Assembly: GCF_055900595.2 (NCBI RefSeq)
Contig: NZ_CM148325.1
Reading direction: 5' to 3' (one strand)
Length of the DNA: 64,000 nt
This document shows, piece after piece, positions 45,001-57,000 of this stretch. Within the stretch, counting starts at the first letter, position 1, and each line of letters opens with the position of its first letter. The position numbers were made by a program.

Positions 45001-48000
45001 CGGTGCAGGTAGATGACTGCGACCAGATCATGATGATCACCGATGCCGGTACGCTGGTACGTACTCGCGTTTCTGAAATCAGCATCGTGGGCCGTAACAC
45101 CCAGGGCGTGATCCTTATCCGTACTGCGGAAGATGAAAACGTGGTGGGTCTGCAACGTGTTGCTGAACCGGTTGACGAGGAAGATCTGGATACCATCGAC
45201 GGCAGTGCTGCGGAAGGGGACGATGAAATCGCTCCGGAAGTGGACGTTGACGACGAGCCAGAAGAAGAATAATTTCATCGCCTCATGCCAAAAGGGAGTT
45301 ATCTCCCTTTTTTGAATTGAAGTCCAGGCTGCAAAGTCTGGGCTTTTGTCGTATTAGGGCGCGGTAAAGTTTTGCTGTACCCATAAAAAATGGCTGGCTT
45401 TACACAAGGAATGTGGCAATGGGTAGTGAAAAAAAGGCGAAAGGCTGGCGGTTCTATGGTCTTGTAGGTTTTGGCGCAATAGTACTGCTTTCCGCTGGTG
45501 TCTGGGCATTGCAATATGCTGGTAGTGGGCCAGAAAAAACGTTGTCGCCGCTGGTGGTACACAACAATCTGCAAATCGATCTCAATGAGCCGGATCTCTT
45601 TCTCGATAGCGACTCTCTGAGCCAGCTTCCCAAAGATCTTCTCACTATTCCGTTTCTTCACGATGTTCTAAGCGAAGATTTCGTTTTTTATTATCAGAAC
45701 CATGCCGACCGTCTGGGCATTGAAGGCAGCATTCGCCGCATTGTCTACGAACACGATCTCACACTAAAAGATAAGCTCTTTTCGTCACTCTTAGATCAGC
45801 CCGCGCAGGCGGCGCTATGGCACGATAAACAAGGCCATCTTTCTCATTATATGGTGCTGATCCAGCGAAGTGGTTTAAGCAAGCTGTTGGAGCCATTGCT
45901 GTTTGCCGCTACCAGCGACAGCCAGTTAAGTAAAACGGAAATCAGTAGTATTAAGCTAAATAGTGAAACCATCCCGGTTTATCAGTTGCGCTATAACGGC
46001 AATAACGTCCTGATGTTCGCAACTTATCAGGACAAGATGCTGGTGTTTTCCAGCACGGACATGCTGTTTAAAGATGATCAGCAGGATACCGAAGCCACGG
46101 CGATCGCAAGTGATTTGTTGAGCGGTAAAAAACGCTGGCAAGCCAGCTTTGGCCTGGAAGAGCGTACTGCCGAAAAAACGCCAGTACGCCAGCGCATCGT
46201 GGTCAGTGCAAATTTGCTGGGTTTTGGCTACCAGCGATTAATGCCTTCTTTTGCTGGTGTGCGCTTCGAAATGAGCAACGACGGCTGGCACAGTTTTCTG
46301 GCGTTAAATGATGAATCCGCAAGCGTAGATGCCAGTTTCGATTTTACGCCTGTATGGAACAGTATGCCTGCAGGGGCCAGCTTCTGTGTGGCGGTGCCTT
46401 ATTCACATGGTATTGCTGAAGAGATGCTTTCCCACATCAGCCAGGAAAACGACAAGCTCAACGGGGCGTTAGACGGTGCTGCGGGGCTGTGCTGGTATGA
46501 AGATTCAAAATTGCAAACTCCGCTGTTTGTCGGTCAGTTTGATGGCTCTGCCGAACAAGTGCAATTGCCAGGAAAACTGTTTACGCAAAATATTGGTGCG
46601 CACGAAAGCAAAGCCGCAGAAGGTATATTGCCAGTAACCCAGACGCAGCAGGGCGAAGCGCAAATCTGGCGTCGCGAAGTGAGTTCCCGATACGGTCAGT
46701 ATCCGAAAGCACAGGCGGCGCAACCAGATCAATTAATGTCGGATTATTTTTTCCGCGTGTCGCTGGCGATGCAAAACAAGACGATGCTTTTCTCCCTCGA
46801 TGACACGCTGGTCAATAACGCGTTGCAAACACTGAATAAAACCCGCCCGGCAATGGTGGATGTGATACCCACTGAAGGCATTGTTCCGGTCTATATCAAT
46901 CCACAAGGCGTGGCGAAACTGCTGCGTAACGAAACGCTGACCAGTCTGCCGAAGAATCTCGAACCGGTTTTTTATAACGCCGCACAAACTTTATTAATGC
47001 CGAAGCTGGACGCTTTATCTCAACAACCGCGTTATGTCATGAAGCTGGCCCAGATGGAACCCGGTGCCGCCTGGCAGTGGCTACCCATTACCTGGCAGCC
47101 ACTATGAGGCACGGGCTGCTGGCGCTGATTTGCTGGCTGTGTTGTGTTGTTGCTCATAGCGAAATGCTGAATGTCGAACAATCGGGGCTGTTTCGCGCCT
47201 GGTTTGTGCGTATTGCACAGGAACAGCTTCGCCAGGGGCCAAGTCCGCGCTGGTATCAGCAGGATTGTGCGGGCCTGGTGCGATTTTCGGCGAACGAGGC
47301 GCTGAAAGTTCACGACAGCAAATGGCTAAAAAGTAACGGTATAGCAAGTCAGTATTTGCCGCCTGAAATGACGCTAACACCTGAACAGCGTCAACTGGCG
47401 CAAAACTGGAATCAGGGGAACGGAAAAACCGGCCCCTATGTGACCGCGATTAATTTGATTCAGTACAACAGCCAATTTATTGGCCAGGACATAAACCAGG
47501 CGTTGCCTGGCGATATGATTTTTTTCGATCAGGGCGATGCCCAGCACTTAATGGTCTGGATGGGGCGTTACGTCATCTACCACACCGGAAGCGCCACGAA
47601 AACTGACAACGGAATGCGCGCAGTCAGTCTGCAACAACTTATGACATGGAAGGACACCCGATGGATACCCAACGATTCCAATCCCAATTTCATTGGCATT
47701 TATCGTTTAAATTTTCTGGCGCGATAGCAGCGTGCTTGTGCCTGTCTCTTGTGGGAACAGGGCTTGCTAATGCTGATGATTCGCTTCCTTCCAGTAACTA
47801 TGCGCCGCCCGCCGGGGGAACATTCTTTTTGCTCGCTGACAGCAGTTTTAGCAGCAGTGAAGAGGCGAAAGTGCGACTGGAAGCGCCGGGGCGTGATTAT
47901 CGGCGTTACCAGATGGAAGAGTACGGCGGCGTGGACGTTCGCCTGTATCGTATTCCTGACCCGATGGCATTTTTGCGCCAGCAGAAAAACCTGCATCGCA

Positions 48001-54000: not shown

Positions 54001-57000
54001 GATGCACCGCTCTCTGGCTGGCATCCGGCAGAGGGTGAAGATGCCAGCTTTTCACAATCGATCAATTACCCCGCGTCGTCCGTCAACATGGCAGATGATC
54101 AAAATATCTCAGCGCAGATCCGCGGCAAAATAAAGAATTATGCGGCGGCGGGTAAAGTTCAGCAGGGCCGGTTGGTGGTCAACGGTGCCAGTATGCCGCA
54201 GAGAATTGAATCCGATGGTTCATTTGCACGCCCTTATATTTTCACTGAAGGCAGCAACAGCGTGCAGGTCATCAGCCCAGATGGGCAAAGCCGACAAAAA
54301 ATGCAGTTTTACTCAACGCCGGGCGCTGGAGTGATCCGCGCGCGTTTACGGCTGGTTCTCTCCTGGGATACGGACAATACCGACCTCGATCTTCACGTTG
54401 TCACACCTGATGGCGAACACGCCTGGTACGGTAACACCGTGCTGAAAAACAGTGGTGCACTGGATATGGATGTCACGACGGGGTACGGACCCGAGATTTT
54501 CGCCATGCCAGCGCCGATTCACGGACGTTATCAGGTGTATATCAACTACTATGGCGGACGCAGCGAAACGGAATTGACGACCGCCCAACTGACGCTGATC
54601 ACCGATGAAGGATCGGTCAATGAGAAACAGGAAACTTTCATTGTACCGATGCGTAATGCTGGCGAGTTGACGCTGGTGAAAAGTTTTGACTGGTGATTAC
54701 TGAGGTTATCTTTACTGTCAATGTTCAAGACAACGCCCGATGACTTTCGCTATCGGGCGTTTTTAAATGTTAATTCAATCGTTCAATCACCATCGCAATT
54801 CCTTGACCGCCGCCAATGCACAACGTTGCCAGACCCAGCGTTTTATCGCGTGCCTGCATTGCATGTAATAGTGTGACCAGAATACGCGCACCGCTGGCGC
54901 CGATAGGATGCCCCAGCGCGATGGCCCCACCGTTGACATTCACTTTCTCAGGATCAAAGCCCAGTGTTTTCCCAACGGCAAGGAATTGCGCGGCAAATGC
55001 TTCATTGGCTTCGATAAGATCAATGTCTGCCAGCTGCAGCCCCGCCAGTTGTAACGCTTTTTGCGTGGCAGGTACTGGCCCCATACCCATCAATGCGGGG
55101 GGCACGCCACCGCTGGCATAACTTTTAATGCGAGCCAAGGGGGTAAGGCCTGCTGCCAGCGCCGTAGATTCTTCCATAATCACCAGAGCGGCAGCACCGT
55201 CGTTAATACCTGACGCGTTCCCGGCGGTGACAGTACCTGCTTTATCGAAGGCCGGACGCAATGCAGCCAGAGCTTCTGTAGTAGAATCTGGTTTCGGGAA
55301 TTCGTCTTGACTGAAGACGAGGGTTTTCTTTCGAGTGACAACATTTACCGGGACGATTTCGGCTGTAAAAGCACCGGACTCAATTGCGGCAGCCGCTTTA
55401 CGCTGTGAATGTAGCGCCAGTTCATCCTGCATTTCACGGGTAATTCCGTACTCTTTAGCCACGTTTTCGGCGGTAATTCCCATATGATAACCATGGGTGG
55501 CGCACATCAGACCATCGCGCAGGATTACGTCATAAACCTGTCCGTCTCCAAGACGATAACCAGAGCGTGCTTTTGCATCGAGTAAGTAGGGCGCTAAACT
55601 CATATTTTCCATACCCCCCGCCACAATGCTTTGCGCCTGACCTGCCTGAATTGCCTGGGCGGCAAGCGCCACACTTTTAAGACCCGAACCACACACTTTA
55701 TTGACCGTGAATCCGCACACTGTTTCGGCCAGTCCGCTTTTTAACAGTGCCTGACGCGCCGGATTTTGCCCCAGCCCGGCTTGCAACACGTTACCCATAA
55801 TCACTTCATCGATATGTTGTGAATCGATTTTTGCGCGTTCAATAGCGGCCTGAATTACTGTTGCTCCCAGATCGATGGCGCTGGTGGAGGCGAGTGAACC
55901 ATTAAAACTCCCGATGGCAGTACGTACCGCACTGACGATGACACAATTTTTCATTTTATATTCCTTCTGTCTGTAAAGTTGCCGTCAGAACAGCGTTAAA
56001 CCAATGACGAAAATGACGCCGGAGAAAAGCAGGGCAGTGATGCAATAGCCCATGATGTCACGGACACCGAGTCCGGCGATTGCCAGTGCTGGCAGCGCCC
56101 AGAACGGTTGTGCCATGTTCATCCATTGCTCGCCGTAGGCGATCGCCATTACCGATTTACCGAGATCGGCTCCCAGCGCCTGGGCTGCAGGTATCACGAA
56201 AGGTCCCTGAATAACCCAGTGACCGCCGCCAGACGGAACGGCGAAATTAATCAGTGCAGAACTAAAGAAGGTCATTACCGGGAAGGTGTCTTTGTTCGCA
56301 ACATTGATGAAGAATTCAGTAATGAGCCCACCCAGACCGGAGTGCTCCATCATCAGTTGGATCCCGGCGTAGAAGGGGAATTGCACCAGAATTCCGGCGG
56401 TACTGCGCGCAGCCGCGCTGATAGCACGCATATAAGCCATTGGCGTTTTATGTAGCAGCAGACCCGCAATCATAAACATCAGATTGACGGTATTGATGGT
56501 GATGTTGAAGCCATGTTCGCTGAAGTACATCGCCAGGTAAGCGATACCGAGTGCGCCGATGATCAACGTCAGGATGCGACTTTCCTCCAGTCGCTCGGAT
56601 GGTGGGGCATCTTTCGGTAGCTGCTTCTGAAAATCAGCCTCTTCCATGAGTAGTTTCGGATCGATACTCACCACGTCGGAGGGTTTTGGCATCATCATGC
56701 GGGTAATAAATGGCATCACCACAATCAATGCCACAGTGATGAAAATGTTAAAACCACTGAACAGAGTATCGCCCACCGGGATAAGCCCGGCGATATGCTC
56801 AACCGGATTGCCCGGTGTGGCAGCCAACAGAGGCATTGAACCAGAGAAACCGCCACCCCAGGTGAGAAAACCAATGTAGGCGCAGGCAATGAGCAACGGA
56901 TAATCAGAACCGGGTACTCGCCGGGCGACTTCACGGGCGAACATTGCACCGACAACCAAACCAAATCCCCAGTTGATGACACAAGCGACTGAACCGAAGA

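Follow-up and report, generated by a model that had tools for sequence, protein, structure and literature searches.

The yfaA-yfaT-yfaS-yfaQ-yfaP operon of Escherichia coli as a probable five-gene Mag-type alpha-2-macroglobulin system

What do the five genes that separate gyrA from atoB in Escherichia coli encode, and is an intact copy of them out of the ordinary? The question is raised by a 64,000-nt stretch of DNA (contig NZ_CM148325.1; the window) in which five plus-strand open reading frames (ORFs) occupy the interval between gyrA (42645-45272, +) and atoB (54770-55954, -). An initial annotation described them as an intact alpha-2-macroglobulin-like operon, yfaA-yfaT-yfaS-yfaQ-yfaP, corresponding to the Mag cluster of Pseudomonas, and proposed that this strain keeps a functional yfaS that K-12 has lost. 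The region is the chromosomal E. coli yfaA-yfaT-yfaS-yfaQ-yfaP operon, probably encoding a five-gene Mag (type II bacterial alpha-2-macroglobulin, A2M) guard complex. The operon is known already: it belongs to the E. coli core genome, and its orthologue in Pseudomonas has been characterized biochemically, structurally, and genetically.

The ORF list returned the five co-directional, packed or overlapping frames at the coordinates first assigned to them. Coordinates are counted along the window; maximal ORFs were recorded first, and likely starts were set separately from the K-12 annotation, ribosome-binding sites, and conservation.

45413-47107, plus strand: yfaA, maximal ORF of 564 aa; likely start ATG 45419, with AAGGAA 8 nt upstream (gene 45419-47107, 562 aa)
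47077-47727, plus strand: yfaT, maximal ORF of 216 aa; likely start ATG 47104, in an ATGA overlap with the yfaA stop (gene 47104-47727, 207 aa)
47646-52265, plus strand: yfaS, maximal ORF of 1539 aa without interruption; likely start ATG 47661, with GGAAGGA 6 nt upstream (gene 47661-52265, 1534 aa)
52266-53915, plus strand: yfaQ, maximal ORF of 549 aa; likely start GTG 52266, abutting the yfaS TAA
53920-54696, plus strand: yfaP, maximal ORF of 258 aa; likely start ATG 53920, after a 4-nt gap behind yfaQ

The identification of the operon is borne out by annotation and by domain content. The same locus is annotated yfaA-yfaT-yfaS-yfaQ-yfaP in a 100%-identical RefSeq record (NZ_CP098223) and in K-12, and Pfam recovers all of the families anticipated in the initial annotation (DUF2138 in YfaA, DUF1175 in YfaT, A2M-family domains in YfaS, DUF2300 in YfaQ, and DUF2135 in YfaP). 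A scan of species-representative genomes with YfaT yielded 80 loci (81 with the window), many of them in Pseudomonas, and the gene order A-T-S-Q-P is kept in these 80; conserved order and domain content together therefore mark a Mag-type (type II) macroglobulin operon. Identities to orthologues outside Escherichia are 67-80% for YfaT, 50-75% for YfaS, 49-67% for YfaQ, 49-79% for YfaP, and 40-71% for YfaA, with Superficieibacter supplying the upper values and Pseudomonas lying at the lower end (e.g., YfaS is 52-55% identical to Pseudomonas orthologues over about 1530 aa).

The correspondence to the Pseudomonas cluster holds for synteny, domains, and a strong structural match of YfaT to MagC (E 6.7e-103), and fails for gene number. 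In P. aeruginosa, the arrangement is magABCDEF (PA4492-PA4487), in which MagA and MagF are paralogues, both assigned to COG4676 (PMC3735191). Likewise, the 70 Pseudomonas and Methylobacter loci that reach far enough upstream read YfaP-like, YfaA, YfaT, YfaS, YfaQ, YfaP. A second DUF2135/YfaP-like gene was not found in the window operon, where gyrA and its terminators lie directly upstream, and the MagA paralogue is absent from all nine Enterobacterales loci (the window and eight others; the group covers Escherichia, Superficieibacter, Enterobacillus, Yersinia alsatica, and Edaphovirga). Enterobacterales thus have five genes because this paralogue is missing, and the window operon, by gene content, is classed as a five-gene variant of the Mag-type operon, without the MagA of the six-gene form. 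YfaP (DUF2135, 3e-17) corresponds to MagF and also to its paralogue, the missing MagA; in Pseudomonas loci its identity is 49-60% with the downstream copy and 37-45% with the upstream, MagA-like copy.

The K-12 MG1655 locus (b2230-b2225) has the same flanks, identical gene lengths, and 94-97% nucleotide and 96-99% amino acid identity to the window. Its yfaS (b4500) is indeed annotated as a pseudogene, as first stated, although the lesion is a different one from the frameshift that had been supposed. Both yfaS genes are 4605 nt long and align without gaps, with one internal stop in K-12:

51762-51764, plus strand: yfaS codon 1368, TGG (Trp) in the window and TGA (stop) in K-12 MG1655

Equal length without gaps, together with the TGA codon, therefore identifies a nonsense mutation (W1368*) as the sole lesion and rules out a frameshift; the stop would delete the last 167 residues of YfaS. 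In the window, yfaS is open throughout, with no frameshift. K-12 is thus a natural yfaS nonsense mutant, in which a one-base reversion would restore the gene, and it is the wrong strain for studying the yfa system.

How common the lesion is was gauged by exact matches to a K-12 63-mer among 5426 complete E. coli genomes. With TGA, this 63-mer is found in 364; the eight stop-allele genomes among the matches listed are all K-12-type or laboratory strains, including MG1655, C600, J53, and ER1709. The corresponding 63-mer with TGG is found exactly in 1405 genomes, most others differing at further bases, and the operon is present at 80% or higher query coverage in 5178. Ratios of nonsynonymous to synonymous substitution rates (dN/dS) against K-12 are 0.03-0.11 for all five genes and therefore indicate five real, constrained genes; against E. 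albertii they are 0.02-0.11 for yfaT, yfaS, yfaQ, and yfaP, yfaA being left out. Because of this coverage, the low dN/dS, and the occurrence of the stop allele in K-12-type strains, an intact and constrained operon is, as judged from these comparisons, the E. coli norm and K-12 the exception. The window copy is intact, as first claimed, yet its intactness does not set the strain apart. For the window itself the operon has little import, being a core-genome operon annotated in every RefSeq record.

Two further segments of yfaS bear on what kind of macroglobulin it encodes.

50199-50246, plus strand: bait-like segment, YfaS aa 847-862, homologous to the MagD bait ANRSERG
50853-50879, plus strand: thioester-site relic EPWGGVINT, YfaS aa 1065-1073, 30 residues past MLPEQ

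The large ORF does contain A2M-family domains. Pfam identifies MG2 (5e-19), A2M_BRD (9e-17), A2M (5e-12), and bMG10 (2e-5) in YfaS; the thioester-domain family was not found by Pfam. An AlphaFold (AF2) model of aa 941-1534 (pLDDT 84) consists of a beta-sandwich, a 12-helix alpha/alpha domain, and a second beta-sandwich. Its best structural matches are E. coli ECAM (4ZIU, 1.5e-18) and Salmonella A2M (4U48), both at about 1e-18, together with 5A42; further matches are to TEP1, C3, C5, and A2ML1. By domains and model, YfaS is classed as a thioester-less (type II) A2M and MagD orthologue, with a predicted MG / bait / TED-like / MG10 architecture. The N-terminus (MDTQRF...GLANA/DD, approximately aa 1-38) resembles, by eye, a signal for SPase I. 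Within its hydrophobic part lies a lipobox-like I-A-A-C25 (aa 22-25, 47724-47735). P. aeruginosa MagD is reported to be without any Cys (PMC3735191).

A search of the whole protein found no C-x-E-Q motif anywhere in YfaS, in agreement with the initial inspection by eye. The MLPEQ stretch to which that inspection pointed (aa 1035-1039) is coincidental: in an alignment of 79 Mag-operon orthologues, most have LPADA at those columns, and MLPEQ is ruled out as a thioester remnant. The true relic is EPWGGVINT, which occupies the canonical G-C-x-E-Q position at the start of the TED-like alpha/alpha domain of the model. In this alignment (region approximately aa 1056-1086), the same columns read YPYGCVEQT in 11 of the 79 orthologues, YPYGGVEQT in most Pseudomonas, and GGV(I/V)N in all Enterobacterales; the GCVEQ carriers include P. 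citronellolis, P. delhiensis, P. panipatensis, P. oryzagri, P. turukhanskensis, and Methylobacter oryzae. With neither CxEQ nor Cys at the aligned site, the assignment of YfaS to the thioester-less MagD type stands. The three aligned forms suggest that the thioester looks to have been lost stepwise, GCVEQ to GGVEQ to GGVIN, the Cys going first and the Glu-Gln next. Since 11 of the 79 A2Ms keep GCVEQ, the absence of a thioester fails as a rule for every Mag-type operon; on this alignment, it is not universal among type II A2Ms, and the complete motif is kept by some A2Ms within six-gene mag operons.

The MagD bait ANRSERG (aa 847-853) corresponds to TNRSERR in YfaS, and its surroundings, APGxxNRSERxVKxLE, are nearly invariant from E. 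coli to Pseudomonas across the 79 orthologues. In P. aeruginosa, cleavage of MagD in vivo yields a form of about 100 kDa and depends on MagB; without MagE, MagD remains unprocessed, and MagD whose bait was swapped for a TEV site traps protease in vitro (PMC5764988). A near-invariant bait is unusual for a broad-spectrum trap. The conservation suggests a specific, perhaps endogenous, processing step.

The architecture of YfaQ, the MagE counterpart, may connect the macroglobulin to the cell wall. Pfam assigns two DUF2300 domains and a SpoIID domain (1.5e-5), and the predicted model of YfaQ has 454 Foldseek matches at E <= 1e-3, headed by class A beta-lactamases. In the model, aa 23-245 follow the secondary-structure order of the beta-lactamase/penicillin-binding protein (PBP) fold: S60-L-W-K63 lies at a helix N-terminus and K195-T196-W197 on a strand, with S108-C109 in addition (candidates for the motifs SxxK, KTG, and SxN, respectively). 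A profile alignment places E334 on the SpoIID catalytic Glu. Residues S60, K63, S108, K195, T196, and E334, as well as a C-terminal H520-E-Y-L-H524, are invariant in 77 of 77 orthologues. The N-terminal half of YfaQ is accordingly predicted to be serine beta-lactamase/PBP-like, with candidate catalytic residues, and the C-terminal half is predicted to be SpoIID-like, with the catalytic Glu present. An internal repeat (a "tandem DUF2300") is ruled out, BLASTP of the two halves being negative and the model showing two different folds. The literature yielded no published description of a beta-lactamase/PBP plus SpoIID architecture for YfaQ or MagE; to our knowledge, MagE has so far been discussed solely as a possible chaperone. 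Tentatively, and with more doubt than confidence, YfaQ can be read as an enzyme or sensor of two domains directed at peptidoglycan; with YfaT, it would make these complexes cell-wall-anchored guards against peptidoglycan hydrolases instead of plain inhibitors of proteases. On this reading, type II A2Ms would also not be defined by thioester loss, since GCVEQ is still encoded in some mag operons.

YfaT matches DUF1175 (2e-58) and, weakly, NlpC/P60 (2.6e-3), and aligns to the P. aeruginosa MagC crystal structure 7BK8 over aa 21-206, with the E value given above; C55, H148, and H160 are invariant in all 81 sequences. By sequence, YfaT is classed as the MagC orthologue, and the weak Pfam match, the close MagC homology, and the invariant Cys-His set place it in the NlpC/P60 papain-like superfamily. 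MagC itself is described as NlpC/P60-like and as a component of the Mag complex that binds peptidoglycan (reference 94 in PMC10318531). YfaA (Pfam DUF2138, E 1e-284; NCBIfam PRK11410; K-12 counterpart b2230) corresponds to MagB, which anchors and stabilizes the macroglobulin MagD at the inner membrane in P. aeruginosa (PMC5764988); in loci outside Escherichia, the gene in the MagB position is 43-51% identical to it. Judged by eye, the N-terminus of YfaA is a hydrophobic anchor rather than a signal peptide. The other four proteins have signal-like N-termini, as originally proposed, ending AHS/E in YfaT, TLA/EE in YfaQ, and AHS/EG in YfaP, besides that of YfaS. In the type strain of Escherichia albertii (NBRC 107761), codon 345 of yfaA reads TAG, in frame, in place of the window's CAG (Gln). 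Nonsense mutations have therefore arisen twice and independently in the yfa operon, each time in a reference strain.

The start of yfaS is embedded in the 3' end of yfaT.

47637-47671, plus strand: yfaS translation-initiation region inside the yfaT 3' end (GGAAGGA Shine-Dalgarno sequence, 6 nt, ATG 47661)

The two genes share a 67-nt out-of-frame overlap in 80 of the 81 loci. A stretch of 35 nt spanning the yfaS ATG (CAACAACTyATGACATGGAAGGACACCCGATGGATACCC; -24 to +11) is almost invariant, and in this zone the synonymous sites of yfaT have a conservation of 0.97, versus 0.81 elsewhere. The zone keeps the rare codons ACA, CGA, and ATA in GC-rich Pseudomonas, and RNA folding predicts it to be unstructured (z +0.24). 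A near-invariant, unstructured Shine-Dalgarno/ATG zone supports a start at 47661, which is likely the true one and is equivalent to the K-12 ATG. The claim of an uninterrupted yfaS of 1539 codons is therefore correct for the open frame (47646-52265), and the protein itself is likely 1534 aa long. The start called by PGAP in NZ_CP098223 (GTG 47751, 1504 aa) is set aside in favor of 47661, which alone gives both a signal peptide and a conserved Shine-Dalgarno sequence; the RefSeq start would remove the whole signal peptide and is probably mis-called, too far downstream. Within the overlap, a slippery-type heptamer, U_UUA_AAU, occurs in the yfaT frame at 47709-47715, from which a -1 shift enters the yfaS frame. 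A programmed -1 frameshift fusing YfaT to YfaS is ruled out as a conserved feature: Pseudomonas has CGACUGAACUUUCUC there, the heptamer is not conserved outside Escherichia, third-position conservation in that part of the overlap is 0.81 as in the rest of yfaT (0.81), with the extreme values limited to the Shine-Dalgarno/ATG zone, and no stable local structure is found. The heptamer is probably a coincidence.

The operon is bounded by predicted terminators.

~45290-45311, plus strand: first of two tandem intrinsic-terminator hairpins past gyrA, followed by a T run
~45319-45346, plus strand: second of the two hairpins, followed by a T run
45347-45418, plus strand: yfaA leader and promoter region, with the Shine-Dalgarno sequence AAGGAA at 45406-45411 inside ACACAAGGAAUGU
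54733-54765, no single strand: bidirectional intrinsic terminator from RNA folding, common to yfaP (+) and atoB (-)

The segment 45273-45350, on the gyrA side, folds at -29.8 kcal/mol (z -4.3; 0 of 200 shuffles equally stable), and 54697-54769 folds into a 10-bp GC-rich stem followed by UUUUU (z -3.6). Hairpins after gyrA and between yfaP and atoB therefore make the five genes a self-contained unit, predicted to be one tightly coupled transcription unit that is terminator-bounded on both sides; the upstream hairpins would keep gyrA transcription apart from the yfa operon. The yfaA leader (about 70 nt) carries ACAAGGAAUGU, and ACACAAGGAAUGU (45398-45418) is similar to the CsrA/RsmA binding consensus (ACA-GGA-UG). 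A CsrA/RsmA-type site is prompted by the binding of RsmA to the P. aeruginosa magA leader (PMC3735191); the case for it in the yfaA leader is weak because the leader contains a single GGA. No regulatory RNA was found in or around the operon, an Rfam search of the operon and its surroundings giving nothing at E <= 1. An anti-phage defense system is not indicated either, since PADLOC matched 0 of the 5 proteins. Literature on E. coli yfaS, yfaT, yfaQ, yfaP, and yfaA consists of incidental mentions, with nothing functional.

A mechanism for the complex can be proposed from the P. aeruginosa orthologues. There, MagA and MagF bind MagD, and MagD traps protease non-covalently after bait cleavage (PMC3735191, PMC5764988). 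By analogy, YfaA (MagB) would hold YfaS (MagD) to the inner membrane on the periplasmic side and stabilize it, with YfaP (MagF) bound to YfaS and YfaT (MagC) linking the assembly to peptidoglycan. Once its bait had been cut, YfaS would trap the attacking enzyme non-covalently. YfaQ (MagE), from its predicted structure, may be peptidoglycan-directed and may couple the trap to the cell wall, be needed for YfaS processing, or both; YfaQ and YfaT together would tie the trap to peptidoglycan, much as type I A2M is paired with PBP1c. Such a complex could shield the cell wall and periplasm from hydrolases that arrive from outside, whether peptidoglycan-targeting effectors of type VI secretion systems (T6SS) or host proteases. 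The initial description of the target as still poorly defined is partly outdated, as a 2025 study reported that magD gives P. aeruginosa protection from VgrG3 and Tae1, two T6SS effectors that target peptidoglycan (PMC12663445). The predicted architecture of YfaQ is a testable link to this protection. Like the thioester relic, the invariant bait, and the embedded start, it is a lead for the family as a whole rather than a peculiarity of the window.

Several observations weigh against a guard complex of this kind in E. coli. Complex formation, localization, trapping, and target are all transferred by analogy from P. aeruginosa proteins with identities of 43-77%, and E. coli is without MagA, one of the four co-purifying proteins in Pseudomonas. 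P. aeruginosa MagE was found in the cytoplasm only and MagC went undetected by mass spectrometry (PMC3735191), data that fit uneasily with a periplasmic YfaQ and YfaT. Since K-12 lives with a truncated YfaS, growth in the laboratory does not require the system. A consensus scan of the 70-nt leader did not find a sigma-70 consensus promoter upstream of yfaA. The catalytic residues of MagC are reportedly in an inactive conformation in the paper that describes its structure, and MagC is reported to lack catalytic activity. DUF1175 is itself called "inactive" (PMC10318531).

Of the competing explanations, one that is possible, if rather doubtful, makes the system first of all a machine for peptidoglycan surveillance and repair rather than a protease inhibitor, in which YfaS would be a scaffold or cage for wall hydrolases and YfaQ and YfaT would be enzymatic, by analogy with the pairing of type I A2M with PBP1c. 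Peptidoglycan binding by MagC (reference 94 in PMC10318531) speaks for it, as do the beta-lactamase/PBP and SpoIID folds predicted for YfaQ (S60, K63, K195, T196, and E334 invariant in 77 of 77), the invariant C55, H148, and H160 of YfaT, and a bait whose near-invariance across genera is odd for a broad-spectrum trap. Yet MagD with a TEV bait does trap protease in vitro (PMC5764988), MagE was found in the cytoplasm in P. aeruginosa (PMC3735191), the enzymatic roles of MagC and MagE are predicted only, and the YfaQ fold assignment comes from a predicted model.

A host-directed role is less probable still, and is unlikely. As first proposed for bacterial A2Ms, the operon would serve colonization, its main targets being proteases of the host, neutrophil elastase among them. 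Binding of human neutrophil elastase alters the conformation of MagD, and magD mutants reportedly show reduced virulence in chronic infection (PMC3735191, PMC5764988); in E. coli, which lives in the gut as commensal and pathogen, nearly all strains have the operon. However, it is also found in many soil, plant, and methanotroph species (P. fluorescens group, P. syringae, Methylobacter oryzae, Edaphovirga), the outer membrane would be a first barrier to host proteases, and the only clean genetic phenotype to date is interbacterial (PMC12663445). That E. coli retains the operon as a silent or decaying relic without current function, as the K-12 pseudogene might suggest, is very improbable: the premature stop in K-12 yfaS, the TAG at yfaA codon 345 of the E. 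albertii type strain, the missing consensus promoter, and the lack of E. coli-specific functional literature would fit decay, which is contradicted by selection (dN/dS of 0.03-0.11 against K-12 for five genes and 0.02-0.11 against E. albertii for four), by prevalence (5178 of 5426 genomes at 80% coverage or more; a stop allele in 364, the eight among the matches listed all being K-12-type or laboratory strains), and by the conservation of every candidate catalytic residue and of the yfaS initiation site inside yfaT. The guard complex thus continues to be the preferred reading.

The lineage represented by the window is rare, with the same 8 of the 5426 complete E. coli genomes being at least 99% identical over 36000-63900. 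Among the approximately 5400 other complete genomes, the next best reach 98.7-98.9% identity in the flanks and 95.6% at most in the yfa operon; the yfa allele is therefore unusually diverged. Import from a cryptic Escherichia is not supported: K-12 is nearer (93-98%) than any of E. whittamii, Escherichia sp. E1V33, and E. albertii, and no donor was found. Over 36000-45200, on the yfaL-nrdA side, the eight near-identical genomes match in two pieces with 1216 bp more than the query. An IS3-family transposase is annotated there, and these genomes appear to have an insertion sequence without a counterpart in the window.

Among known systems, the yfa operon most resembles P. aeruginosa mag. The two share the families DUF2138 (MagB/YfaA), DUF1175 (MagC/YfaT), A2M (MagD/YfaS), DUF2300 (MagE/YfaQ), and DUF2135 (MagF/YfaP) in the same order, the NRSER bait, the 67-nt overlap of the magC/magD type, the absence of a thioester Cys, and a set of signal peptides with one membrane-anchored partner. 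They differ in gene number (six there, five here, with MagA missing), in neighbors (gyrA and atoB here), and in the thioester relic, which is more degenerate in E. coli (GGVIN) than in most Pseudomonas (GGVEQ). Type I A2Ms (E. coli ECAM/YfhM, Salmonella Sa-A2M) have in common with YfaS the multi-domain A2M fold, a periplasmic location (predicted for YfaS), and gene coupling to peptidoglycan proteins, and the pairing of type I A2M with PBP1c is paralleled by YfaQ and YfaT with YfaS. Type I A2Ms carry a CLEQ thioester and a lipobox anchor and have PBP1c as partner, whereas YfaS has four dedicated partner proteins and gyrA and atoB as neighbors; neither of the marks of the ECAM/YfhM-PbpC type, CxEQ and adjacency to pbpC, is present, and phmmer with YfaS did not detect type I A2M, the similarity being too low. 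Compared with eukaryotic A2M, complement C3-C5, TEP, and CD109, YfaS has no thioester and no receptor-binding function and would be a monomeric periplasmic part of a bacterial complex tethered to the membrane. What it shares with these proteins are the MG domains, the bait, and the TED-like alpha/alpha domain, along with weak sequence matches to C5 and to the MG2 of CD109.

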